From contig NYXK01000186.1 in assembly GCA_002685535.1 (NCBI GenBank), positions 2,027 through 66,026 of the forward strand: 64,000 nucleotides of DNA, given 5' to 3'. Positions 7,959 through 46,104 of this stretch are shown in pieces; the first letter of the stretch is position 1, and every line of letters begins with the position of its first letter. The position numbers were made by a program, and so were the translations under genes. The stretch is from Deltaproteobacteria bacterium (GTDB taxonomy: Bacteria; SAR324; NAC60-12). The notes beneath the pieces are model-generated. The model did not search any database. It was not told the origin of the DNA and was given only the letters and a program-made list of their open reading frames with translations.

Positions 7959-10580
7959 ATGTCTGGCAGGAGCGCATATGTGCGCAAGGAGAAGACAAAA
8001 ATTAAGACGGAGCGGGACACAGGCGGTGCAGTGAGTAACGATGGAGAGTCCGACAAACAACCCTCCGACAAGGCTCTGTCAATTGGCGACTTTCCTATGC
8101 CACAAGGCCGCCAGCCTCAGTACATGGTGGACGTTCCCTACAGAAGCCAGAACAATGAGATCTCTACAATCAGAACAAATGTTTCCGGTGGCTCGGACGA
8201 CCTTGCATATGCGCGTGTCCGCAAGCCGCAGGTTCCCGTCATTGATGTATCCGGCATTGAGAAGTCGTCATTCAGGACTAAGATGGACAAGCAAAGTGAG
8301 AAAATTCGAGGAGTTCTGACTTTTGGAGGCAAGAAGAAAAAGAAGACTGAAGAGCACCAAAATGATTACAGACCGACTACTGCTGCGACTTATCGTCATG
8401 ATGTTTCTGAGCTGGAGACGGGCGAATACATCCCTCCTGCAGTCCCTCGAAACAGAACACAGCAGTTTGGTGAGCCAGATTTCATGCGCCCTGCCCCACC
8501 AAATGGCAAGCTTCCTGCAATTCCTCAAGGACCACAATTAAAGCGATGGATGGGTAATGGAAGACCTCCGATGCCATGGAACAAGCTTCGAAAGGATCCA
8601 GAGCTTTGGGACCCCAATGGAGATACCCTCATCTTCTTTGGCCACGACACCCATCATGCCTCGAGACCACCACCTTCGTTCAGATTGTCCTCCCATGTTA
8701 TCGAGCAGACCGAGTCCAGATTCCTCATTACTTTACTCCGCGAGGGATCAATTGACGAGGGAAGCAATTTCAGCATGCCACCTTCTCCAATCAGCTCTCC
8801 TGGTATGCGAGCCCCTCATATGGCTCAAGGAGGCCGGCAACGTCACCCAACACCTCCAACATCAGAAGGCAGTATCTCTGGTGGATTTGATGGTCAAATA
8901 TCCTACGAAATCTACTTCCCAGCTCCAATGAATCAGTCCAAGACTGAAACAATTCGCCATCAGGTCACCACTCGAAATGTGTTCGCTCTACTGTATCAAA
9001 CCTCATTAGTTGGTCTGAATCTCTACCAGGCTCTGAGCGATCTACATGATCGTCTTGAGGTCTATATGCCAGATGAGATTGATGCAGCTGGTATGATTAT
9101 TGATTACATTGTTAACAAGGGAATTGATGATGTACGAGAGAACCCATCTGCTGCAGCTGCGCTGCTGGCGTGGAGTGAGAGTTCTTCTGTTCGATGGGAG
9201 GAAGGATGGAAGGAGGCATATGTTCACAGCGCGGGGATGTATCACCGTCTCGAGAGTGCTCCTGATTTCCGCTATGTCACACCGATCACCAGAGCACTTC
9301 TGGAGCGGGCTAGCTTAGAGGTTCAAGTCCGGATCAACAACTGCGAAAATCGCTTCGTCGACTTCGACTTTGGAGATATGTGGCCAATGATGAGTTCTCA
9401 GCCTCCACCTGCTCGAGCTGCCTTTGAGCGCCTGCGGAAGTTCTTCTTACTGCATTACCAGAGCACTTACGAGTCCTGGCCACCACGTCAACCCGAGGGA
9501 CACGAACAATGGCTCACTAGAGGTCTAGCACAGAAGTTGCAGAAGGATTTCGGATCGCTCTACGACTACTTGGTCAATCGAGAAGTTGCTTGGGATTGCT
9601 CAGAGGAAAGAAGTGGTCGAAAGTGGAATATCATGCATCCTACCAACAGAGGTTTTGAGGCTGATTCCCAAGACCTGCCTTTTACGGATATTCTCGTCGC
9701 CTTTGACAACCGTCACAAATTTCCACACATTCCACATCCATACCCACTAGTCCCAGAATCCCAGCCAGTACGAAACGAGTCGAAGGAGAACCTGTTCAAG
9801 TCGAACAAGAAGTCAAATAAGCCTGCTGAGGATAAGATGGCTGAGCGGAAGGCAGCTTTGGCATATACTGAATCAACCAACATCTACCTACTTGGGTCCG
9901 ACTTTGTCAACAACGATCTGGTTGATGCTTTTGTTAGATTTGAGAAGGGAGATCGAGCGGGTGATGTCGATCCATACGCAGCTCGTCGTGGTAGATGGGT
10001 CCTGATCTACGGAATCCTACAAACTCTGGCTTCGGTGTCCGTAGATACTCCCAATCTTCGTTACACGACGGAAGTCTCGTACCACCTGAATCCCCGTCTC
10101 CGAGGTACACCGCCATGGAAGGGAGCGAACCAGAACGTTCAAGAGGCAAGCCACGTCGGTTCCCACTGCTGGACTGTCCGTGATACATGGCAACCCGAGG
10201 CACCAGTCATGATTTCCCGCCGAGGTCAACACTCCCAATCAGTCCGCTCTTCAGCCCCATCCGCAGCATCCAGCGACGCTGGCTCCTCTACCATGCGGTC
10301 CCCAACCCTTCTCAATGCCAGTATCTCTACCAAATCCTCTGGACGCCGTAACAACACCCGCAAGGAGCCAGACGGTATCAGCTACAGCGGCTACGCACCA
10401 GGCATCGAGAAGCTAGACGAATGGCCAATCCGCGAAGAGAGCAGAGAGTATAGGGAGAGAGACGAGCGTCGGGAGTACGGCCACCGCGTTGGTCCGAAGA
10501 ATGACTATGTCATTCCGCCACAGAAGGGTGGTTACACGATCAAGGATTTCGATGAATATAGCTTCGGAGACCGTATTTGA
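7959..10580 (+). CDS. Conserved fungal protein of unknown function (873 aa, single exon)
   Basis: Uninterrupted 2,622-nt ORF starting at a true ATG (7959). Low-complexity Ser/Pro/basic N- and C-terminal parts flank an ordered-looking central region (e.g. RHQVTTRNVFALLYQTSLVGLNLYQALSDLHDRLEVYMPDEIDAAGMIIDYIV). I do not recognise a named domain. Confidence 0.75.
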   Translation: MSGRSAYVRKEKTKIKTERDTGGAVSNDGESDKQPSDKALSIGDFPMPQGRQPQYMVDVPYRSQNNEISTIRTNVSGGSDDLAYARVRKPQVPVIDVSGIEKSSFRTKMDKQSEKIRGVLTFGGKKKKKTEEHQNDYRPTTAATYRHDVSELETGEYIPPAVPRNRTQQFGEPDFMRPAPPNGKLPAIPQGPQLKRWMGNGRPPMPWNKLRKDPELWDPNGDTLIFFGHDTHHASRPPPSFRLSSHVIEQTESRFLITLLREGSIDEGSNFSMPPSPISSPGMRAPHMAQGGRQRHPTPPTSEGSISGGFDGQISYEIYFPAPMNQSKTETIRHQVTTRNVFALLYQTSLVGLNLYQALSDLHDRLEVYMPDEIDAAGMIIDYIVNKGIDDVRENPSAAAALLAWSESSSVRWEEGWKEAYVHSAGMYHRLESAPDFRYVTPITRALLERASLEVQVRINNCENRFVDFDFGDMWPMMSSQPPPARAAFERLRKFFLLHYQSTYESWPPRQPEGHEQWLTRGLAQKLQKDFGSLYDYLVNREVAWDCSEERSGRKWNIMHPTNRGFEADSQDLPFTDILVAFDNRHKFPHIPHPYPLVPESQPVRNESKENLFKSNKKSNKPAEDKMAERKAALAYTESTNIYLLGSDFVNNDLVDAFVRFEKGDRAGDVDPYAARRGRWVLIYGILQTLASVSVDTPNLRYTTEVSYHLNPRLRGTPPWKGANQNVQEASHVGSHCWTVRDTWQPEAPVMISRRGQHSQSVRSSAPSAASSDAGSSTMRSPTLLNASISTKSSGRRNNTRKEPDGISYSGYAPGIEKLDEWPIREESREYRERDERREYGHRVGPKNDYVIPPQKGGYTIKDFDEYSFGDRI

Positions 10581-11445: not shown

Positions 11446-13239
11446 ATGACTTCCGCACCAACGCAGGCGCCCGTCCTCTCCACCCCCGAATCGCACATCT
11501 TCGAAGACCCCACACCCGCCTCGTTCTCCACCTCGTCCTTCACACAAACATACAATGAAGAAGAATTTAGACACGTTTTCGAGATTGAGAGAACGGTGAG
11601 GGAGGTCAAGCGGGGTGGATATAGAAGGGTTGCGCTGCAATTCCCCGATGGGATGCTAGGTGTCGCTGGGAGGGTCGTGGGAGAGCTGGAGAGGGGGTGC
11701 GAAAGGTGGAAGGAAGAGGATGGTGATGATAGGGAGGACAACGAAGAGAGTGGAAAGACAGAAGGACTGGAAACTGACTTCAATGCCTTGTCGACTTCAG
11801 AAGCTAAAGACTCGAAAATTGTAACGGCGAACGGCAACGCTTCACAACCAAGAGAAGGGAAGAGGGAGAGAATACGCTTCTATATCCTGGCAGACACGTC
11901 CTATGGCTCCTGTTGCGTTGACGAAATAGCAGCCGAGCATGTCGCTGCCGATGCGGTCATCCATTACGGCCGGTCATGCCTCTCACCCACGACTCGCCTC
12001 CCGGTGATCTATATCTACACATCTCAAACTCTCTCGCTCCCACTCGCCATATCCTCTTTCATACAAACGTTTCCGGATCGAGAAGAGAAGGTCTTGTTGA
12101 TGGCAGACATTACATTTCAGATACACATCCCGAAAATAGTAGCGGCGCTAAGGGAGGAAGGGTATACGAACCTCGCTGCACCGGAAGTAGTCAGGGATCC
12201 AGCGAGCGTGGTGCCAAATCGATTAGTCGAGGAGACTGTCAGGGAGAACTTGAGCGAGTATAAACTCTGGCATGTATCAGAGCCGCCGAAAGCGCTTCTC
12301 TTGACTCTTGCGAGTCGAGTGAAGGAGATGTACATCTACCCTACGCATGGTTCACAAACCTCTACCACAACAGACGGACCAACTCCTCAAGCCGTCCTCG
12401 CAAATACCTCTATGCTCCTCCGTCGCCGCTATGCTCTCCTAACAACCCTTTCCACAGCCCCCATCCTCGGTATTCTCATCAACACTCTCTCGGTGTCGGA
12501 TCATCTCTCTGCACTCTCCTCTCTCCGCGAGCTCATCGCCCGCGCAGGCAAGAAAAGCTATACTTTCGTCGTGGGCAAAGTAAATGCAGCTAAGCTTGCG
12601 AACTTCAGCGAGATTGGCGGGTGGGTGGTGGTCGGATGCTGGGAGAGCAGCCTGATTGAGGGTGGCGAGTTCTATAAGGGTGTAGTGACGCCCTTCGAAC
12701 TTGGTGTTGCGTTAGCTGGGCAGGGACGGGGATGGGATGGGAGTTGGAGGGGTGATTTTGGAGGTTTGCCCGATCCGTCTAGCATGAAAGAGGATTCTGA
12801 GAAAGATAGTCTGGAAGAGGCAGAAATGAATGGAGACGGCGCCAATGGAGAGCAACAAGGTGGCGTTGATGATGATTCTGAATCAGAGTCAGAACCACCA
12901 GTTTACGATCTCCGCACTGGACGCTATATCTCAAATTCGCGGCCAATGCGCACTTCTACCACTGCCAGTTCTCATCCACCATCCTCAGCTTCCAATCAAG
13001 ACTCCAATAGTCCCACAGCCCAGCCAGAGAAGTCCAGATCCCTGATTAAAAGGGCACAGGGCGATCTAGCAACCATCAACGGTACGCTCAGTCCCGGCGC
13101 CGAATACCTCCGCACGCAACGGACGTGGACGGGTTTGGGAAGTGACTTTGCGGAGACGGAGGCACCGGATACGATTGAAGAGGGGAGAAGTGGTGTCGCG
13201 AGGGGGTATGTCGTTGGTGAGGATGGGGAGAGGAGGTGA
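11446..13239 (+). CDS. DPH2: Diphthamide biosynthesis protein 2 (2-(3-amino-3-carboxypropyl)histidine synthase subunit 2)
   Basis: Single 597-aa ORF from a true ATG. It carries the DPH2 signature blocks YRRVALQFPDGML and ILADTSYGSCCVDEIAAEHVAADAVIHYGRSCLS (compare yeast Dph2 LADTAYSACCVDEVAAEH). The acidic/low-complexity C-terminal tail is typical of fungal orthologues. Confidence 0.9.
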   Translation: MTSAPTQAPVLSTPESHIFEDPTPASFSTSSFTQTYNEEEFRHVFEIERTVREVKRGGYRRVALQFPDGMLGVAGRVVGELERGCERWKEEDGDDREDNEESGKTEGLETDFNALSTSEAKDSKIVTANGNASQPREGKRERIRFYILADTSYGSCCVDEIAAEHVAADAVIHYGRSCLSPTTRLPVIYIYTSQTLSLPLAISSFIQTFPDREEKVLLMADITFQIHIPKIVAALREEGYTNLAAPEVVRDPASVVPNRLVEETVRENLSEYKLWHVSEPPKALLLTLASRVKEMYIYPTHGSQTSTTTDGPTPQAVLANTSMLLRRRYALLTTLSTAPILGILINTLSVSDHLSALSSLRELIARAGKKSYTFVVGKVNAAKLANFSEIGGWVVVGCWESSLIEGGEFYKGVVTPFELGVALAGQGRGWDGSWRGDFGGLPDPSSMKEDSEKDSLEEAEMNGDGANGEQQGGVDDDSESESEPPVYDLRTGRYISNSRPMRTSTTASSHPPSSASNQDSNSPTAQPEKSRSLIKRAQGDLATINGTLSPGAEYLRTQRTWTGLGSDFAETEAPDTIEEGRSGVARGYVVGEDGERR

Positions 13240-18729: not shown

Positions 18730-19646
18730 TCACTGCCAAACAATATTATTACGTGAGTCTTTATTAAGTTGACGAAAGCCGATGAGTGCATCTTTCCTTT
18801 GCTGCCAGTTGCGTCCTCCGTGGCCTACATTTGTGAATACAAGTTCACAGGCCCTACTTTTCTCTGCTGAAGAAGAGCTTGAACTACCCACCTCATAAAT
18901 ACTCATAATCCCAATCGCCAACACGGTCTCCGGCTCAAACGCCGTTCTCCTCCTCCCCAATGCTACTTGTTTCGCCATCAACGCATTCTGGTACATTTCC
19001 AAACCCTTTCTCCTCATCACCACATCACCCGTCATCTGCGAACACCTCGTATAGCACAACGCCGCGATGATACTCGCCATCGGACTCCACGTCCCTGTAT
19101 ACGAACCCATAAAACTCCACATGTAGTATCGAGCTGGTGCGGAATGTTCGGGTGCGCGGGATGAGAGGTACCATTCTGGGAGGCAGTATTTGACTGCTAG
19201 GTTGAGGATGAGGGAACGGTTGGTGGAGTCGCCGGTTAGGAGTATGGGGGTTTGAAGGGCCTGATGCATTCGATATCAGACGTAAGTCTCATACGTATCA
19301 TAGGTCGATTTTAAAGCTCTTACGTCGTCAATTGTTCTCCTACTCCATACTAACTGAGATCTGTGCGGATTCCCCGTCCCCCCTCCGTCCCCTCGCAGCA
19401 GCTTCCTCCGTCTGATCACAAAACCATATATGGACTTGATCTTGATACCGACATTCAAGTCCCCTCTTCAAACATTTCGCACACGTTGGCTTTCCCTCGT
19501 CACATTTGAAAATTTGTAAGCAACGCGATATACAAGAACATGAATTCAACATTAAATCGCTGTCAACTCACCTTAATCTTCCTCCTCCTCCAGCTCTCAC
19601 ATCCAGTTGACGGTCGACCGTTAACCCTTCTATCTAGCTGCGCCAT
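18730..19646 (-). CDS. Zn(2)-Cys(6)-type fungal transcription factor, short and apparently degenerate
   Basis: ORF 19340..19552 encodes ...KCDEGKPTCAKCLKRGLECRYQ, the second half of a binuclear zinc cluster. An upstream exon from ATG 19646 encodes MAQLDRRVNGRPSTGCESWRRRKIK followed by GTGAGT (donor at 19571). ORF 18730..19269 has the pattern of a fungal-specific TF middle region (GLEMYQNALMAKQVALGRRRTAFEPETVLAIGIMSIYEV). The problems with this model are listed in the findings. Confidence 0.55.
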
Positions 19647-20520
19647 CAGGATAGGAATTCAGGAATCCGTCCCCAAATGATCGTGCATCTCTTCAGTCGT
19701 TTGTGTGAACAGAAAGAAAAACTCCCGAAACACGAAATGAGATGACCTCTAAACTCCGCGATCAGCCAAAACGCGCTTCTTCACGTACATTTACATCTAG
19801 TGCACTCCCGAACTGGCGTAACTGAACTGACCTAATCCACAGGGCTGAAAGGGCTATCGAAATCTGAAACCTTGCGCCAGGTTGAAAAGGGAAAGATGGT
19901 ACAGACGGTTCCTGAGCCGGTGGTAATATGTGCGTGAAATGGACTCGGGAATTGACATGGAACTTATGATTGGCTCCAAGAAATACCGGCGGCTCACTAG
20001 TTGAATAGCTTAAGCATTCGGCACTTAACCATTCCAGGAGCAGTAACCCGGCTGGGAAAAGCGTCGTTAGCGTTAATTTCAGCTGACTCCACCCGAAAGC
20101 GGCTCCCAAGTGATAATAAGTCAACATGCAGTACATATACTTCTACTGTAATCAATCGAATAGTCTGAAGTGGTGAGAAGTGATACGGATTCAGAGAGCA
20201 AAGCAATGAGAATGAATTACTAGTAACTACGGCTACGAAAAAATCCGCAACTGATTAAGTCTGAATACATGCAGAAAAAAGGGAGAGAAGAAGCAAGATC
20301 AAATCAAGTTCGCCCGTTCGTCTTTCAAACATACTCCGTTGTTCATGAACAACTCCAGGATCACAAGTGAGCAGCACAAATACTCCGAAAGGACAGACAA
20401 GCGACAGTTCCAGTTAAGTCAAGCACACTTCCGCGCCACATAACGCCACGCAAGAACGCGAGTATTCTCTACTTCTTTCCCAGCCTCTGAGTATTACCCC
20501 ACGGGCGACGCCCCTTCCTG

Positions 20521-23500
20521 CTACTCGTCACGAGTCATCTTCCTCGACCTAACTACCCTGCTCGGGGTACTGCTTGGTTCCCCTTGGCCATCACCAGTAC
20601 TCCCATCACTCATCCTCATCTTCTTCGCCTCCCTCTTGCTAGGACTCCTGCCTATGCTAGCAAGCCCATCACCAGCAGACATCATATCATCAGCCTCATC
20701 CACCGTCGCCTTGTTCCGCTTGTCACCCGTTCTGGCACTACGAGTCTGGCGAGGTGCAGGTGCAGGTAGCGTCTTGAATCCTGGAGCAGGAGGAGAAGGC
20801 GCGAAACCAGCTTGTGTGGCGTTACTGACATTTGTACTTCCAGTCAAAGGACCTGCTGGACCAGCAACAACGGTACCACTGCTTGAGGCGAAAGTGTTGC
20901 TTCCAGATGATCCGCCAGCACCACCACTGGCCGCAAAAGCCTTCTTCCTAGCATCCAACTCAGCAGTCGCTTGTCCAAGCTTAACAGTAGCCTCCGACCT
21001 CCTCCTCTCCTCTTTCTTCTCTGCTTCTTCAAGCTTTTGATCAGCTTCTTCGGCTTTAGATCTCGCTTCAACGACATCTTCTGGAAGGAGGAAGTCTTCA
21101 TAATCAGGGTATTGTTCTTCCAAGGTAGCGAGTTTAGCGCGGAGGGTTATGGTCTCGCTACGAAGGGCGCGGATGTAGTCGTCGGCGGATTTGCTTGTGT
21201 GCTTTTCTTTGGCTTGTATTACACTACTGAATGTCAGCGTTTGTTCATTGTCCATAGGATATCGTCATCATCAACGATGAGAAAGAAAAGGTACTTACCC
21301 AAGCAGATTGCTAGCCTCAAAGATAGCATCCCGTTCTTGCTCTTCGGTCTCTCTCTGCTCGCGAGTTCTTCGCGGACGTGGCTGAGCTTGTGTTTCCACT
21401 CGCTGGATCTGCGTCACTGCATTCGCAGCAGTCTCAGCCAGCTTCTGTAGCGAGGCATGAGCTTTTCGGAAATCGGGGAGACGTCTTTTGAACTCGGCGA
21501 GTGCGGCGTTCAGAGCAGTGCTATGATAGTCTGAGCCATCAAATACCATGGCTGTTGAGGTATTTTGGAACGAGCCTGTCTGCGGGACGAGACCAGTATG
21601 TGTTTGGAAGTGGTCTCGAATTGATTTTCGAGATCGAGTTCCGAGCCTGAAGCCACAACCTGGAATGGGACAAATACCCATATCTTGTATCTCTGTTATT
21701 CTACCATTGTCGGCTAGGTCGTTTGCGTGCCATCTCAAGTGTGCGCCGATGGTTTCCGAGGAAGTCGTTTCTCTGAAGCTGCGACCGCAGCCTGGAAGTG
21801 GACATGTGCCCCAGTCAGATACTGTAGCGTGTGTAAGAAAGTCTACTCCTGCGCCTGCTAGTTCCTGATACTGGTCCATCATATGGTCGCTGGCAGTAGC
21901 TTTCCTTTTCTCTCGTCTTGACAGTTTCTGTTCACGAGCTAGTACCGCTTGCTCTCGGGCTCTGACCTCGTTCTGACGATATATAATATCGGCATGGTCG
22001 GCGGCGTTCTTAAGCCTTTGCGAATCCACAGCTAAGTCATGTTAGTCTAGGACAGACATTGGAAAATAGACGTAATGTCAACATACCTTGCGACAATCCA
22101 TGATATGCCGCTGCAGAAGAAGGCTCTCGACGATAACAATCAGCATTATGAGAAGCCAGCCCAAAGACTGACATGCTCGCAAGATGTTTTCCGCAACGTT
22201 TGCAATATTTCCCTGAACCGCCGCTGGGGATTCGGCAGCGCTTGAAGTGTGCTTGCTGATCATTAAGGCTCAGGAGAGCGAGATTGAGTCCGCATCGGAT
22301 ACAGAAATACCCGTCGCCACATGACCTATGCTCCTTGCGCTTTTCGGAATCTGCTGTTCGTTGTCTGCCGCAACTTTCGCACATGATTGGATCTGGAGCT
22401 CCATGCTTTTTGGCTGGTGTCTTGCGAGTGCAGATACGACCATGATGAGCTTTCTCGGCAGGCGTGCATGCTAGCACATCGAAGCCGCAACGATCGCAGA
22501 ACTTCAGTGCCCCCGGAACGTGACTGGCGATGTGAGTTGTAACGTTTTCTGCTAAGCTGCCTCTCAGATCAAGGTCGCAGACCGGACATCTCGTATCATC
22601 CCAGAAATGTTTGATATCGTCGCTTTCTCTCTTGGTGAAATCTGACATGAGATGCTGTTTCTTCTGTGCAATGGTGAAGAGAGCCCAATTTTCTTCACAC
22701 ATAGGACAGTGGCCGATAGAGCTGAGCAGATCCATGTGGCCTTTGTAATGTGCCATCTTGGCATCGTTGTCATATGCTTTGAAGGTTTCTGAACAGATCG
22801 GGCAGCCAAATTCCCTCTCGAGGACATGATTCAGGAGTTTGCGATTCTCTTTGCGAAGCTCGAGGATATCAGTGGGTGTGAGGTGCTGGGTAAATACTGT
22901 GGGCATGCTTGGTCCTACGGTGATTGCAAGCTCTAAGTTGTCTCCATAGAGTGGCGCCGCGGGTGCGAAGCCTGGCTCGACGACAGATTGATCTTGGGTC
23001 CAAGACCTTTGTTGCAACTGATTTTGAGCTGTACGTTTGAGCATCCAGGCATCGAATTTGGGAATTTCGGATGTTCTGAAGATAGGAGGCTTTGCGCCAG
23101 GTATATCGCGGACTTTGTAAGAAGGCTGTGTCACAGGCGGTGGCCCATCAATCACTTCAGAATTATGGGTCTCATTGTCTGGACGATCGTGAAAAAAGCG
23201 AACCCGAGATTTGGCGTGTTTTGATACTTTAGGACCAGTCTTTGGGAGACAGTAACTAGGCTGTTTGCTTTGGTGGGAGTCATACATGCCCCATGGATCG
23301 CTGGAATCGCGAACTAGGTAGAATTAGACAATTCTGAGAAAACATGAGCTTTGTGTCACTTACTGCATTGGATTCCATCGTTACGCATCACAGTCAGTTG
23401 GTTGTTGTGGAAATAGTCGAATATGTCTTGGCGCCACTCATCTTCAGTTGTGGAACTGTTTACAACGAATCGCTGATTTCGCTTAGCGACGATTATCTCA

Positions 23501-26500
23501 AAGTTCTCTGTGTACTTCTCAACGTCGCCGGCAGATAGCGATGAAAATGCGGTCCGGAAAGATTGCAGGGTTGCATCCTTCGTGGAATCCCACTGAAACG
23601 TCATTTGCCTTTGGTCTTCAGTCAAGTCCATGTCTGTTGAATCGCTGGCAAGGTGCTCGGTAACGGTGAAATGCTTCCACTCAGGTCGGAACCAAATGCA
23701 ACTTGCCGAATTGATGACATCCTCTTCCTCAATCCATGACTCTAATTCGGCGGCTGTATCGCTGCTGTGAGCATAGTCGAATAGGCGAGATGCAGCATCT
23801 ATTTCTCTGGCCGCGTATGAGATCCAAACTCTGAATTGATCCGGCAACGACAATGCAGGGTTATCAGTGTCATCGTAGTCCAGAAGTACTGCTCTCGAAA
23901 GTTCTCGAATTGCTCTAGCAAGGCCCGCAAAGTCTCCATGCTGAAAAGTGCTGTATCTCTCCGTGCCAGCAAGGCGAATACCTACTTCTGCAGAGTGTGA
24001 GCCTTGAGGGGGCACACCCTCACACACCGCAATTTCATCCGCGTTGTAGCTGTCAATATGCTTGTTGACGGAATTGTAGAACTCCTCTGTGATTTGCACT
24101 CCATCCCAGCCCAGGTGTGCGTTCAGCAGTATGACGTCTTGAGTCGGCCGACGTATACCACCAGGATAGTGCACCTTCATGGCTGACAAGAATCCATCCT
24201 GGATTTGGTTCATGCCATACCGACCATAACGCGGAGTTGGTAGTTTCCAATACGACTCCTTGTCTTTGCCCCTTAGTACAAGGCAGTCTCGAACATTTTT
24301 TGAGGGTGTAAGATCTTTTGTGGAGATCTTGTTGCACTTGCGAACGAACACAGGCCATGGATACTCAGCGTTTCCGGGGATGTCCTTGATATGCTTGTCA
24401 AATTGTTCGGTGTATCTGTCCCATAGTATTTCGATGACTGTCGGCGGGCTCGTATGATGCAAGTCAACAGTAAAGGACCAACCTTTGCCGCCCCTCTGTA
24501 GGCCAAGAAGCCAACGAGCACCTGCTTGGAAAGACTCGGCACTTTTCTCCACCATGATCTTTCCTCCATATCCATAGATATACGCAGATTGTGTAGCAGG
24601 AACAGAGCTTGTAGTGTAGGGAAATGTCTGGTTCTTTGGGTCGAATCCCTGTATACCTTGGCCTAGCATGGGTCTAAAAGGAGGGTGCATATCTGGCGAC
24701 GGGAAAGTGGGTGACGGTTTGAAGGGAAGAACGTTGAACGCCGTGAAGGTCGAGACTGGATTCTCGTTGGAGGGTCGAACGACAATGTTCCAATCGGCTT
24801 CGCCGCGGAAAAGGCGAGGCTTGATGTCCTCCTCGAATTTCTTCTCCAACGAAGCCTTTGTGATCTGTACCGTGTGGCTAAAATCAAGAGCTCGAGTTGC
24901 GCTATTAACGCGGTTCAGCTGATTTGAATAAAGATCAACAGCGAACTCCCAATCAGAATTGTGATCAATCCCTAGAAGTCTCAAGGCTCGATTGCCAAAA
25001 CTTTGGCTTATGGGCTTGATTTCACGACCCTCTTTGTTCCGATAGATTGTTGCAATTTCTCGTGGTTTCCTAGCCTGTGGCGGAGCCGTGACCTGCGAGG
25101 CTGATCGGGGTCTACTACTTGGAGGCCAATGACTAGGTGGCTGTGTGATAGTCTCGTGGACAACGACAGTCCAACCTGTCTGTTGGAAAATACGCTTTTG
25201 AATAGCCATGTACTGCCGCAAATTTGCTGTCAAGGGATAAAGTATTGAATGGTCGAGCGGTGCCCCTGACCCACCAATTGGTTTGTCTAGCTGGTTCGAA
25301 TACAAGCTCACGGTCTTTGATCTTGCACCACCTGGCAACAATGTTTTGAGGGAGTCGGTAAACGATTTCGCGTTGTTCTCGAAATGTTGTGATGATTCGT
25401 TTGGGTATGCGAAGACTATGCCCATTGACGTTTCCGCTTGTTCAGATTGCAGTGGATCAACCTGCGTTGGCGTTGCTGATGGTAAATATGTTGCATCCTT
25501 GTGTCTTAAAGGACGTGATGCTGGTAGTCTTCCCAAATTCAGCACATCAGTGTTGTGGGGGCCTCGTGCCGGAATGCTGAATGGACCGGTAAACTTTTCG
25601 CCATTCATCCGAAGATGGTAATAGTCCACAGAAAAGGCCCAGTTTTCGTCAGAAATTCTGTCCCTCAGATAGGAGTCCCATGTCTTGTCGAAGTCTCCTT
25701 TGGAAATAATGAAGCTTCTCACGAAAGGCTTATTCGGTGTCCTCTTGTATCGCTCCGAATTTTCGAATTGGTCCACAACGATGGTCCACTCCGAGTCAGG
25801 GTGCAGATCAAGAGCCTCGAATGCAGCTTTGCGGAACTCATCTGCGGAAACTTCGTCGTCAACGGCTTTGAGCTTGATACTCGCGCCATATCGACTGAAT
25901 AGATACCGCTGAGAGTTTCCGCCTCCGCCACGCAGTTGGAGTGGGGATCCAGTTGGTTGTATGGACATCCGAGCGTATTGATCACGAGCAACGCTGCCGT
26001 GCTGGGTTTCCATTTGCTCGAGTTGTCTAGGTGTTGGCACAGTCGGCTGAACCATGTTTTGAGTCTTTGGTTTAGGCCCTATTTTGCATCAGCGGGGTAT
26101 CAGACAACTGAATTTTAAGAGCAGGGCTTACTACGGAGCATTGGAAAACCATAACTTCTCTCATGGTAGCAATCGAGAAACTCGAGTGGTTTCTCTGACC
26201 AGAAAATCCTCTGAACCCTCGGGATATCCAGCTCGTCGTCTTCGGGATCATCGCCTTCATCCCTGCCGCAGTTCGTCACGTTCGCATAAGTCGCTGGTTC
26301 GATGGGTAAGCCGAAGTGTAACATGGCCAGCTTTGTAGCGAGATTATCGTAGGTATTACTGAAGCGGCCCTCCGCTCCTAGAGCCTCCTTGTAGGGAAAT
26401 GTGTTCTCTTTTTGAAGTTCCAACCGAAGGTCCTGGTTGTGACCGGGTGGTAAAAGCAGTAACTCTTGAAAGCTGTCTTTCTGAAACCCAAGATTTCGGA

Positions 26501-26909
26501 AGACATCCAATAAGCCCATTTTCTCACTCTGGAGCATTCTCACGATTTCTGCTCGCTTTTCGATCCATGCTTGATCGGTTTCTTCGATATCGGGATCAAA
26601 CGGATCGTTCGTAACTTCAGCGGTACGCAAAATCCTCTTGATGTCTGCAACTGCGCTGGCCGCGTCCATAAAATTGGCCGTCCTTCGTTGCTGCTCTGCG
26701 CGCTCCTCTGCGGTTGGAGGCGGAGGAGACGGCGTCGGGCTCCCTACATACCTCCCGGGGTCATATACTGGCTCTGATGATGCGAACGGGTTCCAAATAC
26801 TTCGTCTCGATCTTTGTGTGGGTCTTTGGTGATCGACATCATGCCCAGCATCTCGTTTCTTGCTTCTCCAACGATCTCCGTAACCATCAAATGGAGAAGT
26901 TCCCGCCAT
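20521..26909 (-). CDS. Giant (2,052 aa) repeat-containing multi-zinc-finger protein of unknown function
   Basis: Five ORFs join with closing phases. Exons are 26909..26132, 26078..23364, 23313..22087, 22031..21299 and 21226..20521. Introns are 26079..26131 (GTAAGC..TAG, 53 nt), 23314..23363 (GTAAGT..TAG, 50 nt), 22032..22086 (GTATGT, CTAAC branch, TAG, 55 nt) and 21227..21298 (GTAAGT, CTGAC branch, CAG, 72 nt). Each donor overlaps or directly precedes the stop that ends the upstream ORF. Total CDS is 6,159 nt. The first true ATG is at 26909 (MAGTSPFDGY). Confidence 0.8.
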
Positions 26910-28457
26910 GATCGGCAATGATGGTGAAATGAGAAAAGACAGGATTTGTTGACAGAAGAGACACGGACGGGGGAGAAGAGAAGAAGGGAAACAATGCACA
27001 ACCGTTCTTTGAGCCGAGTCGAAATGGATTACATTCCAGAGACAATTGAAACGGGATAGCTAGCGAACTTGGGGGAAAAGAACAAAGAAATCCATCGATG
27101 GGCTCGTACACTTGTAAGACAGCTGAAAGCGAGAACAATTCGGGTATTTCGACTTCAGAATAGCCGAAAGCGGTTTTAGACATTTTGTACTGCGATGCTT
27201 GCAGTTCCTCACCTCCATAATGTAGTAATTCCGAAGCAGGTGGTTGCGAGCTGCCCCATTCCACATCGAAGTGAGGGATGGTTGCGGGATGGGTGTGCAC
27301 ACGGTAGCTGTGATGCATCTTCGACTGCCTGTTTGAGGATTGTGGGAGTTACTCTACTTTCGTGTATGAGTTGATGCATGGTTTTCGGTAGTTGTACTAG
27401 GCCCGATTGTTATTGAAGAAGGGGATCGATGTCTGTCGGTGTTGAAAGAAACAGAAGTCAAGACAGGACGGTCCTTCACCCGAGGCCGGAGTGTTGCATT
27501 ACAGGTGGGGCTCCCGTGACTCGCTTCATCTGCCCCTGTCAGATGGCCAGCCAGCCAGCCCTGGAAATCCAAATCCTTCCCGTACCTTACCTACCTCACG
27601 TCTCCTGCCCTTCTTTTCTACAACACACTTACCTCTCATAAATATGTGGCAGTCAATTTCACGACGACTATCCAGTACCTGCATTAAAAACGCTGAGAAT
27701 CAGCATCTACGTCACGTCAACTATCTTTAATTGTGCCGTGTTCCACCTCAATGGGCCGACTGGCTTCTCGCCGTTCACTTCTTAGGCATGGCGACGGCCA
27801 CGTGAAGCAGGACTCGGTTACCAGAATGGGATCTTACGAGATTCCCAGTCCTAGTCTGCGGTCTCTTCTGCAACCCTGCCGCGGTGCGGCGTTCAATCAA
27901 GCATTACTGCACCCCGATTGCTTCAGTGGAGGAGTTCGAGTCGTCGTATGCGGGGTAATGTACTCTGCATACATCCAGAAGTCATCGTATGTCTCTCTTG
28001 AGAGACGAGATGCAGTCATTTTGGTCCACTGTCTGAATATGCGCACCGGTACTAGTGAAACCCCCAAGTAGTAACCAAATCACGCAGTTGTCTTCTCCCT
28101 ATTCAGTCTGCTACTTGCTCTTCGATAGCCAAGTATGTTTCATCAAGAGTGAGGCACAGTGGCCATCACAGGACGAAATCCTCAGATGCTCCGGCTCTGT
28201 TCTCTCGTAAGTACCCAAATTCTCGCGAATGATTGCATAAGCTGGTTTTCATTTCGTATCGAATCTCCAATTGGATCTGTCTGCATGCTGCAGGTCGGGT
28301 CGAATTTGATATTGTGCTCAGGCATGCTCGCAAATCGGTTGCACTACCAAAGTTTTGGTAGTACATGCAATCATGATTATCGCACACAGTTCCCAGTATA
28401 AGAGAATCTATATCTCCCTCCTCCCAGAGTCTAATGAACCCTTTCAACTAATATCCG

Positions 28458-30495
28458 ATGCAACTTCTCAACATGTTTAGATTTCTGGTCTTCATCGCTG
28501 TCTCCCTTTATCCATTCATAACCCTCGCCTCTCCTCAGACCTTCACCAAAATCGTGCAATGCCTAACCACATCCGGCATCCCACAAGCCCATCCCGGCAC
28601 GTCCTCTTTCAGCCAGCTCATCATCCCCCTCAACCTCCGTCTAAACTACACACCCATCGCCCTTGCTCTCCCCACCACAGTTCCTCAAGTTCAAGCTGCA
28701 GTCAAATGCGCCGCCAAGTTAGGCGTGAAAGTCAACCCGCGATCAGGCGGCCACAGCTATGCATCTCATAGCATTGGAGGTGAAGATGGGCATCTCGTGA
28801 TTGATTTGAAGTATTTCAGAGAAACCGTTCTGGACAGCAAGACGAATGTTGCAACTGTTGGACCGGGTGCTAGATTAGGAAATGTGGCTGTGGCACTTTA
28901 CGAGCAGGGTGGGCGGGCAATGGCTCACGGAATCTGTCCTGGGTGAGTACAGATAATTCCCTTCCTCTGCCTTCTCACAGAGCAGAAGTACGAAGCAAAA
29001 AAAACAATTTGTTGACATCGCCCCTACAGCGTCGGCGTCGGCGGGCATGTCCTCCACGGCGGTCAAGGTTACAGCACCCACACCCACGGTCTCTTCCTGG
29101 ATTTCCTCCTCTCGACCGAGATCGTACTCGCCGACGGATCCCTCGTGACAGCCTCCAGCACCCAAAACAGCGAACTTTTCTGGGCTCTTCGCGGCGCAGG
29201 CATGTCTTTTGGAATCGTCACATCTTTCAAATTCCGCACCATCGCTGCTCCGGCCGAGAATGTCATCTTCTACTACCCGTATCTCTGGAATCAAGCGCAA
29301 GCTCGTGCTGGTTGGGAAGCATGGCAGGAGTACTGTGGTGGGTCTACTGACCCGATCATCCCGCGAGAAATGAATATTCGCTGGGTAGTGGTGAACTATG
29401 CGAGTGGGTATATGATTTTCTTGCTAGAGGGGGCATATCATGGATCTCAAGCGGACTTCCTGGTGGCGATCAAACCGCTTTTGAGTGCGTTGGAGATGGT
29501 GGGGGGTCTGCAAGCTGACATTAGAGGGACTGGACCGCATAGTCTGGGTTGGTTGGATTCACTGCTTTATGCGAATAACAATGATTTGTTTGATGCTCAG
29601 GGAACTGGTGAGACTCTGGAGAGTCCTCTGAATTATACTGCTGTAAGTTGGTCTCAACCTCTCCTGATAGTTGCTTCTATCCGCTCTTACGGAATACTAC
29701 TGACTCACAAACTACTAGCATTCGACATTCGTGAGTTCACCTGACATGTGCATCTAATCGATGCGAAGCAAAAAGATGATAGCTAATGAAAGGCAAACAG
29801 TTCACCAAAAGCCTAATGACAGACAACCTCTCACCAGTCGGAATCGATGCCTTCATCAATCAACTCTACACAACCGGTCCCACCAGTCCAGCCGTATGTT
29901 TTCCATTTTGTCCAGTCAACCCTCTTCCCTCTCCCCCTCCCATCTGACTCCTGCCTTAACTTCATCCACCTCATCCTTGCTTCTCCTTCTACTTACCCCC
30001 TCAACATCCTTTCTAACTCTCATTCTCACAGGGCTGGTATTTCATAATCTACACCCAAGGGGGCCCCACCTCCGCCGTCCCCCTCACGCCCTCCTCAACA
30101 ACATCCTACGCCCACCGCTCCTCCCTCTACGAATGGCAACTCGTAGCCCAAGTCGCCGCGCCACCATTCCCAGATGCCGGGATACAATGGCTGAATGATT
30201 TCGTTGGTGCGATTTTAGATGTTGAGGAGGGGGCGGGAGAGAAGAAACTGGGTATGTATTACAATTATGCGGATCCGAGTTTGGGGAGAGTGGAGGCGGG
30301 GGGACGATATGTGAGTTTAATTTCTTCTTACTATATTTTTACTTCTGGTTGATTTGTCGGGTTCGAGGTATTGGGATTCTGAGTGAAGAGCTGATACATG
30401 TGATGTCGTAGTGGCTACAGAACTACCCACGCCTAAAAGCCATCAAAAAGAAAGTCGATCCGAGATCTGTGTTTACGAATCCACAGACGGTATAA
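28458..30495 (+). CDS. Secreted FAD-linked oxidoreductase, berberine-bridge-enzyme-like (VAO/PCMH family)
   Basis: Signal-peptide-like N-terminus (MQLLNMFRFLVFIAVSLYPFITLASP). FAD-binding blocks are PRSGGHSYASHSIGG and, across the first intron, CPG|VGVGGHVLHGGQGY. The BBE-type C-terminus reads YYNYADPSL...WLQNYPRLKAIKKKVDPRSVFTNPQTV. Exons are 28458..28942, 29030..29642, 29719..29730, 29801..29893, 30032..30310 and 30412..30495. Phases close, giving 521 aa. Confidence 0.9.
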
Positions 30496-43120: not shown

Positions 43121-44128
43121 AGAGCGTTTCACCTTCTTTGCTGTAAATATGTTTCATGGACGTACTATACTCAGGAACCAAGTCCGGGAGATTTACCTTC
43201 CCAGCCGCGATATCTTTAAAGATGACCCTAAGGTAGAATCATCTAACGGATGGGACAAAGACTGGAAGACAGGCAGGGGTGCTGCTTCGCTCTGATGAGT
43301 GCGAGGCTTAGCTGTGAGGCACCCGGATGAGATTGCGGGGGATGGGAAGTATGGAGATTGACGTCAGGTCTGTGAAGTTTACTTTGGTCCCGTTTTATGG
43401 AAAGAATCGAGCTAAACTACAATCAGGCGCTGGTCGGAATTTAAGGCTGAATCCTTACAGTCGCGAGGTCATCTTCATCTCTTCCTTCTTACCCTCACTC
43501 TTTTGCTCATCTACGCTCCCAGCCCAATTTCTTCTCTACTCTTCCATTTACCTCGCACTGACTCAGATCATGTAATCGAATCAATTGACTGCAAAAAGAA
43601 TTTCTAAGATGTTACAACCAATAGTTGTGATACTTTTGTAACACCACCATAGATCTTAGATAGTAAGTCTTCATGAGAGTCGAGATTGAAGCAACGAAGG
43701 AAAAAGAAAGGGAAAGCGTGATGTTTCAAAGTCTCATTGATTTTTAATTTGAAAAGTTGCTATTTTATATGCTCATTGTAAATTCTCATGGATGGTATCG
43801 TTACAACTCTCCCCAAACAGCCTCTTTCAACACCCAGATTCGAAGATTGGACATCGGCAGTGACCTTCATTGAACTCCCGTCCCTAAGCTATACAATAAT
43901 CGGATAAAATCTTGCTCATCTCCTACCCCACACACACTGCTACCTCCACCCCATGAGAACAGACAAATGCCTCGCCATAAATACTTGGTTACCTCCCCTC
44001 AATATCATCCGACAAAGTAAATTTTTGGAGAAACGGTTAATCAGCTTCCCAGAACCGTTACAAGAGGTGGATCCACCATATCCATTGCTCACTCATCCGC
44101 CCACCCACTCACAAGCACACCATCCACC

Positions 44129-45497
44129 TCACGCTGCACCATTCGCCCTCCTAGCAACCTCCGCCCCCAACGCGCCCTTCATCCCCACCCTCCTCTTATA
44201 CATCCCCATCCTACTCCTCACCTCCCCCTCCCCTCTCTTCTCCGGCTGCCCAACCGCCGGATCAAAAATCGTACCCGGACCAAAATCCGGCTTGCCACCT
44301 AACGTGCCAAAAACATCCCCAATATAATTCTTCGGCTTAACACCCTTCTCAAAAGTCTTCTTCCAGCCACTCAATATCCCCTTAATAATCGGTGTACCAG
44401 CAAGATAGATATTCTCCACCGCTGGCTCGAAGGCGCCTTGATTGGAGTAGAAGAGGTTGAATTCCGGGCTTGCGCCAGGATATGGTCGGTCGAAGTCCGA
44501 GGCGGTGCGCATGATGATGATACGTGCGAAATCAATGGTCTTGTGCACGGCGAAGCGGATCATGGCTTCGAGGGTAGCGTTGTCTTCTTGGGCTGTCATG
44601 CAGTAGACGCCTGAACCATTGGTGAACAAGCTTGTGGTATTTTCGAATGCTTCGCCGAGGAGAGTGCCGGAATAGTAGACGTCTGAGGTGGCGGTGTCGC
44701 ATTTGATGATTCCGGGACTCTTGGATGCGGCAGAGTAGATCTTGGTGTGGTTGCCCACGGCGTATAAGGCGCGGTAGGCCACGGCCTCAGAGGTGTCGTT
44801 TAACTTCGCTGTGCTGGCGAATTTGGCGGCGATGTCGCGGAGGGCTTCGTTCACTTCGAAGACTTCGGTGCCGTAGATGCTTTGGGGGTACATGTCTGGT
44901 GAGGTTGAACCTTGGGGGATATAGCCGGTACTGTAGTTGGATGGGATTTCGCGGGCGTCGAACTCGTATTGGAGGGCGACTTGAACGGCATATTTGGAGA
45001 ATGCAACGTCAGCGATAGTACCGTGTTTTGGATTGATACCAGCGATACCTCCGATCAGGAAATATGTCTTTCTGAGATCGAAGAGAGGCGAAGCCATAAG
45101 TGCCGTGATGGTTGTGGCAGCATTGATCTCAGATTCGCCGGTGGTGAGTTGGCATACAGAACCATCCTTCAGACAATGCACATCTGGGAAAAGAGGCGAG
45201 AAGCCTGGAATGGTGATGTTTTGTGCGAGTAAGTCACCAATTGATCCATTGGTATTGGCATTTGTATACCAGATGTCTGCTTCTGGCGAGAACTGTCTTG
45301 AATTAGAAAATGCTGTGGTGGCGGGGTTGAGAATCTACCATAGAAATGATGAACACTTTCGGTGTGATGATATCGGCATTTTTGTAAATGACAGTCACTT
45401 CTCTTGACTCAAGCGATTGCTCAGCCCGTCTTTCTATAACTGGTGAAGCAGAGACCAGAGCTCCGACCAATAAGCTGGCCAAAAAGTTGACTCTCAT
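44129..45497 (-). CDS. Purine nucleoside permease (NUP family)
   Basis: Signal-like N-terminus MRVNFLASLLVGALVSA, then PKVFIISM|FSPEADIWY across a 46-nt intron (45293..45338). NUP-family blocks follow: LTTGESEINAATTITALMASPLFDLRKTYFLIGGIAGINP, YCMTAQEDNATLEAM and IIMRTASDFDRP. Exons are 45497..45339 and 45292..44129 (440 aa). Confidence 0.88.
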
Positions 45498-46080
45498 GAT
45501 GGCGAACGTATATAGAAATCAAACGACCGCTTATGGATGACAACCGCCAGACTGCGAATTCTGACGACCTGGGCTGAGTGAGTTCTGATCGAAAGGATGA
45601 ACGAAGAAGAAGGAAAGAAGAAAATAACAAGAAGAAATAGACCTGTAGAAGCTCAAGATAAGCTTCTCGAAGAAAAGAAAGTGGAGACAAAACAATCTGC
45701 CGGTATCTTATCATGACAAGCCAGGGACTGCGAGGTGAGGTAATCCGATGAAGAAACGGGTCTCGTTCGACCCAAGCGGAGACCTACATGTGCTCTTTAT
45801 CTGGATGCGGCAACGATTAACCTGCATTGCACTTGCAATTGAGCTCGGAGGTAGTACTTGCAGTTTCGTACACTAATGCGGGCAGGAAGTGGCTTAATCC
45901 TTGTCGGGTAAGCACTCATTTCTCACTTGTTACTCAGTCCCGATCTTCAGCCTCATTGCCTCTCCCGCCTTGACTAAAGTACTGAGGTCCTCCTTGCGAA
46001 AGAAAAAGAATCACCAGCCAAATGCTCAATAAGAATGAGTTTCGCCGAAATCCTCGACCGCTTTCCAAAATCAATGTATC

Positions 46081-46104
46081 AGCTTGTCAGCTTGTCAGCT
46101 TGTA
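46081..46104. repeat. 3 x 8-nt tandem repeat (AGCTTGTC)
   Basis: Direct reading: agcttgtc agcttgtc agcttgta, intergenic. Confidence 0.9.

Follow-up and report, generated by a model that had tools for sequence, protein, structure and literature searches.

Here we report that five long open reading frames (ORFs) at positions 20521-26909 of a 64,000-nucleotide stretch of contig NYXK01000186.1 (hereafter referred to as the window; deposited as Deltaproteobacteria bacterium) are the exons of one real fungal gene under purifying selection. On balance, we consider it probable that the gene belongs to a Cadophora-like helotialean fungus and that its product of 2,052 amino acids (aa) is a non-enzymatic adaptor or scaffold, probably nuclear, of a small uncharacterised family. 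From the N terminus to the C terminus, the protein is laid out as a family signature domain (the N-domain), a disordered linker with an LRGG motif, seven tandem modules, a conserved pre-finger segment, seven zinc fingers (ZF1-ZF7) and two further ones, a coiled coil and a basic tail. Because a single gene under purifying selection encodes units arranged as beads on a string and carries no enzymatic signature, a non-catalytic multivalent adaptor fits it best.

All five ORFs (294, 899, 416, 244 and 244 aa) lie on the minus strand, and splicing yields a 6,159-nucleotide (nt) coding sequence whose sole stop codon is terminal. The four introns have the phases 1, 1, 1 and 2, each ends in a YAG acceptor, and each carries a match to the CTRAY branch-point consensus 7-12 nt 5′ of the acceptor. 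The original prediction had joined the ORFs into one gene with these intron sizes, donors and phases, and splicing, a tblastn comparison and the structure of the Cadophora gene agree with it; its statement that the ORFs end exactly at the donors holds in substance but not in wording, as the ORF stops fall 4-50 nt inside the introns. The parts of the gene are as follows.

20521-26909, minus strand: whole gene, ATG to stop, five exons and four introns, 2,052 aa (2,051 aa with the distal intron-4 acceptor).
26132-26909, minus strand: exon 1, aa 1-259 plus 1 nt, proline-rich N-terminal tail and most of the N-domain.
26079-26131, minus strand: intron 1, 53 nt, GTAAGC...CTGAT...TAG, phase 1, position and donor as in Cadophora.
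23364-26078, minus strand: exon 2, aa 260-1164, the LRGG-bearing disordered linker followed by the seven tandem modules.
23314-23363, minus strand: intron 2, 50 nt, GTAAGT...CTAAT...TAG, phase 1.
22087-23313, minus strand: exon 3, aa 1165-1573, ZF1-ZF7 preceded by a disordered linker and the conserved pre-finger segment.
22032-22086, minus strand: intron 3, 55 nt, GTATGT...CTAAC...TAG, phase 1.
21299-22031, minus strand: exon 4, aa 1574-1817, charged helical segment, ZF8, ZF9 and the start of the coiled coil.
21227-21298, minus strand: intron 4, 72 nt, GTAAGT...CTGAC...CAG, phase 2; alternatively 21224-21298, 75 nt, ending in TAG.
20521-21226, minus strand: exon 5, aa 1818-2052 plus stop, remaining coiled coil and basic tail.

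In a tblastn search, three homologues of ~2,100 aa matched each of the five exons, the matches breaking where the junctions had been predicted, and single homologous proteins of ~2,000 aa cover all five ORFs in more than ten other genomes. At the locus of the nearest annotated orthologue, from Cadophora sp. DSE1049, splicing four introns (53, 51, 56 and 76 nt) reproduces the annotated protein exactly, and the intron positions and all four donor hexamers are those of the window gene. The flanks are also collinear with this species, with a FAD_binding_4/BBE gene upstream on the opposite strand and a Zn2Cys6 gene downstream. Against the Cadophora sp. DSE1049 orthologue, the ratio of nonsynonymous to synonymous substitution rates (dN/dS, Nei-Gojobori) is 0.20 over the whole length, and ranges from 0.07 to 0.20 in the predicted folded units compared with 0.3-0.5 in the linkers; the folded units are thus the more constrained, and the pattern of selection tracks the domain boundaries of the AlphaFold models.

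Two details of the gene model concern its 3′ half. Intron 4 ends in a tandem NAGNAG acceptor (CAG|TAG, 21224-21229, minus strand), the two AGs of which are in frame and one serine codon apart. The proximal AG lies only 7 nt past the branch adenosine, and the distal AG, which gives a 75-nt intron and the junction ...LLG-VIQ..., aligns with the Cadophora acceptor. The Cadophora acceptor and a gap-free protein alignment therefore favour the distal AG, and the product may have 2,051 instead of 2,052 aa. In addition, tblastn with the three homologues found no coding match 3′ of the stop codon, and a search for an extra exon that could supply the acidic EDDGFEDVEE sequence with which the homologues end found none; the acidic C-terminal extension of most homologues is truly absent from this protein.

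Database searches place the protein in a family without a characterised member. Pfam gave nothing above threshold in the query, in 18 family members or in six distant members, the latter also lacking any additional domain that would hint at a pathway. In the PDB, neither the whole protein nor the profiles of the N-domain and of the pooled modules retrieved a useful sequence match, and a literature search found no paper on the family. A word-indexed search retrieved 17 homologues, all from Helotiales and all annotated as 'hypothetical', and a second one with the full-family profile added only a Fusarium zealandicum protein and an identical ENA fragment; the Fusarium protein has the N-domain in common and, by eye, a similar layout, but is strongly diverged. 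A profile search with the N-domain returned 132 proteins, mostly unnamed metagenome ORFs of 170-320 aa that are probably exon-1 fragments, and an exhaustive HMMER search of exon 1 against 1.84 billion representatives returned 107 proteins only. The named long members come from Leotiomycetes (Sclerotinia, Stromatinia, Monilinia, Hymenoscyphus, Phlyctema, Coleophoma, Amylocarpus, Bisporella, Chlorociboria, Scytalidium and Pseudogymnoascus) and Sordariomycetes (four Colletotrichum species and the Fusarium protein). Two Colletotrichum homologues (P0184 and P0186) bear the names 'Reticulocyte-binding protein-like protein' and 'Protein piccolo', which no Pfam domain backs and which appear to be automated labels from low-complexity similarity. 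Judged by these searches, the family is small, fast-evolving and uncharacterised, with named members in Leotiomycetes and some Sordariomycetes. The gene and its relatives were thus already in databases as hypothetical proteins; the sequence families are undescribed, and the kinds of fold are known ones.

The original prediction had divided the product into five parts, and the outline stands with two amendments. Its acidic N-terminal region corresponds to aa 95-260 (net charge -14), but aa 1-94 form a proline-rich, slightly basic tail; its ~300-aa zinc-finger-like array does contain fingers, but these are nine Cys/His fingers rather than a uniform array. The ~900-aa repeat region is real, as four modules are related by profile comparison and seven have a common predicted fold. 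The Glu/Lys-rich coiled coil shows strong heptad periodicity, and the disordered basic tail has a net charge of +7 and a conserved KREAKKMR motif resembling a nuclear localisation signal (NLS). We likewise found no recognisable enzymatic domain (Pfam gave no above-threshold match) and no full-length match to a characterised family, the kind of hit that the prediction had named as counting against it. The modular layout of repeats, fingers, coiled coil and basic tail agrees with its candidate nuclear scaffold. Beyond that outline, our analysis points to seven predicted beta-grasp modules, UBZ/Di19-like fingers, the LRGG motif and a range spanning Leotiomycetes and Sordariomycetes. The features of the protein are as follows.

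26133-26627, minus strand: N-domain, aa 95-260 (residue 260 completed in exon 2), family signature domain, dN/dS 0.16.
25924-25941, minus strand: LQLRGG motif, aa 306-311, in the disordered linker; its pattern is that of the ubiquitin/NEDD8/ISG15 C-terminal tail.
25621-25908, minus strand: module D1, aa 317-412, ββαββαβ, predicted beta-grasp-like.
25153-25422, minus strand: module D2, aa 479-568.
24772-25053, minus strand: module D3, aa 602-695, under the strongest constraint of the seven (dN/dS 0.07).
24340-24588, minus strand: module D4, aa 757-839.
24019-24285, minus strand: module D5, aa 858-946, predicted secondary-structure order as in D1-D4, sequence similarity to D1-D4 undetectable.
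23680-23988, minus strand: module D6, aa 957-1059, same predicted topology, sequence similarity to D1-D4 undetectable.
23383-23673, minus strand: module D7, aa 1062-1158, predicted with the shared topology and weakly similar to D1-D4 at the profile level (E = 7e-4).
22805-23056, minus strand: pre-finger segment, aa 1251-1334, 94% identity to Cadophora, dN/dS 0.03.
22136-22804, minus strand: finger array ZF1-ZF7, aa 1335-1557.
21727-21804, minus strand: ZF8, aa 1650-1675, Cx4C C2H2, Cadophora clade only.
21598-21672, minus strand: ZF9, aa 1694-1718, Cx4C C2H2, kept in most of the family.
20980-21489, minus strand: Glu/Lys-rich coiled-coil region, aa 1755-1900, spanning intron 4, heptad score up to 0.95.
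20524-20964, minus strand: basic tail, aa 1906-2052, Ser/Thr/Gly-rich.
20614-20637, minus strand: NLS-like KREAKKMR, aa 2015-2022.

A BLASTP self-comparison detected no repeats in the module array; hhalign comparison of family sub-alignments revealed that D1-D4 are mutually homologous (E = 1e-13 to 1e-16). We made AlphaFold models of exon 2 and exon 3 from 18-sequence alignments (low predicted template modelling (pTM) scores of 0.47 and 0.34). The exon-2 model contains seven units, each with a ββαββαβ order and separated by disordered linkers, with a predicted local distance difference test (pLDDT) score of mostly 80-90 within the units and a mean of 70.8. When the model was compared with the PDB by Foldseek, nearly all of the top 50 neighbours of the modules were ubiquitin-like beta-grasp domains, including the multi-ubiquitin protein, talin F0F1, the ubiquitin-like domains (UBLs) of USP7, FAT10, the Ring1B RAWUL domain, SAP18, PB1 and Ras-binding domains. 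Template modelling (TM) scores for single-domain targets reached 0.62, as diluted by the use of the whole 904-aa model as the query. Foldseek against a viral library gave only noise, the modules matched no known UBL, PB1 or RA family in Pfam, and the pooled profile against the PDB gave nothing below E = 0.097.

The closest analogues of this arrangement are tandem UBL proteins (the C-terminal UBLs of USP7, FAT10/ISG15, the bacterial multi-ubiquitin protein and talin F0-F1), which likewise consist of linker-joined ~90-aa ββαββ(α)β units, are consistently among the top structural neighbours of the modules and provide the protein-interaction role that we adopt as our model; PB1 domains and Ras-binding domains are analogues at the level of the single domain and share with the modules a full second helix. 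By contrast, there is no sequence similarity to any of these proteins, the Foldseek E-values are not significant, and the fungal modules have a signature of their own (F..AAL.LLGL, W.F.VD and DW.IVVR) and no attached catalytic domain. Seven modules are detectable in Cadophora, Oculimacula, Rhynchosporium, Diplocarpon and Phialocephala, five in Sclerotinia and Stromatinia, and none in Hymenoscyphus, Bisporella, Pseudogymnoascus and Colletotrichum.

The N-domain occurs in every family member, matches no Pfam family and no PDB sequence, and has a profile unrelated to that of the modules. A role for the N-domain as a cysteine protease acting on the LRGG motif was rejected, as the domain has no invariant Cys or His residue (His198, Cys247 and His249 all vary). 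The LQLRGG motif itself is the most unusual feature of the protein. The family alignment shows R309 and G310 to be invariant and G311 and G313 to be nearly invariant, and a [LVM]-x-[LM]-R-G-G motif follows the N-domain in 17 of the 17 distant members examined, in one to three copies and often in two or three. Variants include LRLRGG in Coleophoma, identical to the ubiquitin tail, and LALRGG in Colletotrichum, identical to the NEDD8 tail. In the AlphaFold model, the linker including the motif (residues 261-314) has a pLDDT below 50 and is thus predicted to be disordered; the beta-grasp domain that directly precedes the Gly-Gly in ubiquitin-like precursors was not found at this position.

The pre-finger segment is the most constrained part of the protein, is modelled by AlphaFold as two helices around a low-confidence stretch and is probably a binding element. 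In the finger array that follows it, ZF1 and ZF3 are of the C2H2 type and ZF4-ZF7 of the C2HC type, nearly all zinc ligands are invariant, and ZF2 is C2H plus Asp in the Cadophora clade, with a His at that position in distant members. The exon-3 model predicts a hairpin and a helix (a single ββα unit) for each of ZF1-ZF7, with pLDDT values of 70-87. Their first cysteines are spaced by 32, 40, 30, 39, 26 and 33 aa, and no TGEKP-type linkers are present. The classical C-x2-4-C-x12-H-x3-5-H pattern occurs in ZF1, ZF3, ZF8 and ZF9 and not in every finger. The Cadophora proteins P0001 and P0002 have an additional C2H2 finger (CHLCRTTFDGYGRQDIVDHF) that is absent here (alignment columns ~2140-2200, query aa ~1640-1650). 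The array is gaining and losing fingers at its margin.

Profile searches suggest a UBZ/Di19-like character for these fingers and set them apart from classical C2H2 fingers that bind DNA. No Pfam family of the zf-C2H2 type matched the query, and one of the 18 members matched zf-C2H2_6 (E = 2.7e-4). The sole Pfam signal of the query is zf-Di19 (PF05605) at ZF1-ZF2 (aa 1332-1375; E = 0.011, 16.4 bits, below the 27.5-bit gathering cut-off); six of the 18 members match this family at E < 0.01 (best 1.4e-6), one distant member reaches 21.3 bits, and the Claussenomyces protein has a precomputed PF05605 match. The remaining architecture is unrelated to that of plant Di19 proteins. The finger profile also matches UBZ1 and UBZ2 of TAX1BP1 with a full-sequence E-value of 1.1e-5, each finger alone having an i-Evalue of ~0.1. 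In the WRNIP1/RAD18 group, UBZ fingers contact ubiquitin through a P-V beta-loop and an Asp at His+2, and in the FAAP20/Pol eta group through an Asp at His-2, Leu or Phe at His+1, Ala at His+2 and a Leu after the last ligand (PMC4370504). ZF1-ZF3 keep the C-P-[IMLV]-C beta-loop of the former group, and ZF3 keeps three of the four contact positions of the latter (I/M/L, Ala in 17 of 18 members, and V/I).

The fungal fingers resemble the UBZ fingers of TAX1BP1/NDP52, WRNIP1/RAD18 and FAAP20/Pol eta in being single ββα fingers with CCHH or CCHC ligands, in the alignment of finger 1 with the TAX1BP1 UBZs (CP.C...F..YD......H...H) and in the H-[ILM]-A...[VI] helix face of ZF3. They differ in lacking the ubiquitin-bonding Asp of both structurally defined groups, in occurring as seven successive fingers instead of one or two, and in ZF4-ZF7 having charged beta-loops and a Cys pair that is two residues further from the His; the fingers are putative ubiquitin binders.

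The C-terminal part contributes features that would suit a nuclear, self-associating protein. A home-made heptad score peaks at 0.95 in aa 1755-1900, compared with at most 0.55 in the folded regions. This region also gave weak profile matches to Rad50 coiled coils; matches to the Rad50_zn_hook and Peptidase M23 profiles were set aside as effects of coiled-coil composition. The basic clusters KKR, KRNK and KREAKKMR are conserved, and many of the more distant homologues have an AT-hook-like GRPRK sequence ([VRA]GRP[RK][KG]), which reads VVRSRKM here. The three clusters and the ancestral AT-hook suggest that the protein is probably nuclear.

On the adaptor reading, the seven modules would be ubiquitin-like beta-grasp domains that serve as protein-protein interaction beads on a string, forming an expandable spacer or platform with 0-7 detectable copies across the family. 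The fingers would not be a sequence-reading DNA array and would instead act as UBZ/Di19-type ligand-binding units, either for ubiquitin or ubiquitin-like domains or for some other partner, be it protein or nucleic acid. The coiled coil would pair two chains, and the basic clusters would import the protein into the nucleus, with the AT-hook also contacting DNA in most relatives. As the N-domain, the LRGG motif and the finger array are the invariant parts, they would carry the core function. Large non-enzymatic adaptors of genome maintenance and autophagy, such as SLX4 and TAX1BP1, offer a lead in their size, long disordered linkers, C2HC/C2H2 UBZ fingers, coiled coil and lack of a catalytic domain, but they have no detected homology to the fungal protein beyond a single finger and have neither the N-domain nor the modules.

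Several points weigh against this interpretation. With 18 sequences and low pTM scores, only the local folds of the AlphaFold models are credible. Foldseek found no significant PDB match for the modules (best E = 8.4e-3, none at or below 1e-3), so that the beta-grasp assignment draws on predicted topology and the consistency of weak matches. For the finger model, Foldseek was not significant either (best E = 8.5e-2), and the top matches were multi-finger arrays. The UBZ-defining Asp is absent from every finger under both contact schemes, and the C-P-x-C motif is common in ordinary C2H2 fingers. The R-G-R-P core of the AT-hook has been lost in the window gene and its closest relatives (the Cadophora clade), and the proposed nuclear localisation is read from short basic motifs. 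The N-domain may conceivably have a cryptic catalytic role.

Three alternatives have to be set against the adaptor reading. One, now effectively refuted, holds that each ORF is a gene of its own, or that the locus is a pseudogene in decay or derives from a transposon, and that the splice signals are coincidental: prokaryote-style gene callers do divide the locus into individual ORFs on an identical TARA scaffold, but the single homologues across all five ORFs, the intron positions, donors and phases shared with an independently annotated orthologue, the canonical donor, branch point and acceptor of every intron and the full-length dN/dS of 0.20 contradict that division, as do the uniform G+C content and the synteny with Cadophora (FAD/BBE and Zn_clus flanks). 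The main rival is a sequence-specific C2H2 transcription factor, in which the finger array reads DNA and the remainder is a regulatory or activation region. Several homologues are labelled 'C2H2-type domain-containing protein' in UniProt, the Cx4C-x12-15-H-x3-H pattern of ZF8 and ZF9 is the classical one, Foldseek ranks DNA-binding arrays such as those of ZBTB24, CTCF, TFIIIA and WT1 highest for the finger model, and the basic tail here and the AT-hook in relatives count in the same direction, as do plant proteins with Di19-type fingers, which have been described as DNA-binding. We nevertheless regard this rival as unlikely, given that neither the query nor most members reach the Pfam threshold for zf-C2H2, the spacing is irregular (26-40 aa) without TGEKP-type linkers, C2HC ligands occur in four of the seven core fingers, the Foldseek E-values are 0.085 or higher, the best sequence match is to protein- and ubiquitin-binding fingers, and ~85% of the protein lies outside the fingers.

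The third alternative takes the LRGG motif as a ubiquitin-tail mimic or precursor, after whose Gly-Gly a deubiquitinase (DUB) or UBL protease cleaves, or which docks or inhibits such an enzyme as a pseudo-substrate would; in the cleavage variant, the N-domain (aa 1-311) would be separated from the module and finger body, as in SDE2 or ubiquitin fusions. In the form L-x-[LM]-R-G-G, the motif is invariant in all 18 close and all 17 distant members, the disordered linker that holds it downstream of the N-domain is in every case otherwise not conserved, the Coleophoma and Colletotrichum variants equal the ubiquitin and NEDD8 tails, and ubiquitin-like predicted folds and UBZ-like fingers occur in the same protein. 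Moreover, deubiquitinases read the Leu, Arg and Gly-Gly of a ubiquitin-type tail, and SDE2 is processed by a DUB at such a tail, but SDE2 cleavage requires the upstream UBL (PMC13572447). In SDE2 and ubiquitin-fusion precursors, the internal motif ending in Gly-Gly is likewise followed by a functional body, but their beta-grasp domain directly precedes the Gly-Gly, whereas in the fungal protein the 54 exon-2 residues before and through the motif are modelled as disordered, the modules come after it, and the N-domain has no profile similarity to them. The fungal motif is also duplicable, and several copies fit a binding motif better than a single processing site; a lone RGG may alternatively be a site of arginine methylation or RNA contact. 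We consider a tail mimic rather improbable on this evidence.

The beta-grasp-like modules, the UBZ-like fingers and the LRGG tail motif are nevertheless three weak, independent signals for ubiquitin-type recognition, which we treat as a lead and not as a classification. The wider proposal, under which this family would be a hitherto overlooked part of ubiquitin or ubiquitin-like signalling in fungi, with tail mimics, ubiquitin-like modules and UBZ-like fingers on one chain, is in our estimate a long shot worth stating. In that case, a DUB would cleave at the LRGG motif, freeing the N-domain and activating the body in an SDE2-like manner without an upstream UBL, or would be recruited or titrated by the motif, and the fingers would bind modules on the same chain or on partner chains, giving a multivalent assembly.

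We also noted several features of the locus. Positions 20323-28433 are identical to TARA_SAMEA4397091_METAG-scaffold_333 (ENA ERZ2783021) bar assembly-gap artefacts at 25566-25573 and 22465-22507; comparison with this 99.4%-identical scaffold revealed no within-species polymorphism, the gaps (runs of N) being the sole differences. The match places the source of the gene, a Cadophora-like helotialean fungus, in a Tara metagenome. The divergent FAD_binding_4/BBE-type oxidoreductase gene lies at 27756-30317 on the plus strand (ORF 28458-28946, Pfam E = 1.4e-16). On the other side, a Zn2Cys6-type motif (KCDEGKPTCAKCLKRGLEC) at 19451-19507 on the minus strand marks the next downstream gene, which is syntenic with the Cadophora Zn_clus gene; it may be shorter or rearranged here, as only part aligns with Cadophora DNA. 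Positions 44119-46976 are homologous to a purine nucleoside permease (NUP) gene, which is ~17 kb away here and ~4 kb upstream of the Cadophora orthologue, so that a local rearrangement or insertion has taken place. Two long plus-strand ORFs, at 7959-10580 (873 aa) and 11446-13239 (597 aa), may together belong to a second large gene and bear on the original claim, itself plausible, that the gene studied here is the largest in the window.

Collectively, our findings describe a gene that is among the largest of its neighbourhood and clearly selected, and that brings two domain families new at the sequence level, the N-domain and the ~90-aa module with a predicted beta-grasp fold. Its relatives stand without name or function in plant pathogens (Rhynchosporium, Oculimacula, Diplocarpon, Sclerotinia, Monilinia, Colletotrichum and Fusarium), in the root endophytes Cadophora and Phialocephala and in the bat-pathogen genus Pseudogymnoascus. 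If DUBs truly cleave or dock at the LRGG motif, the ubiquitin tail would be mimicked outside a ubiquitin fold, which would be unusual; otherwise, the gene would still provide a solid entry point into an unstudied fungal scaffold family, though an ordinary one.

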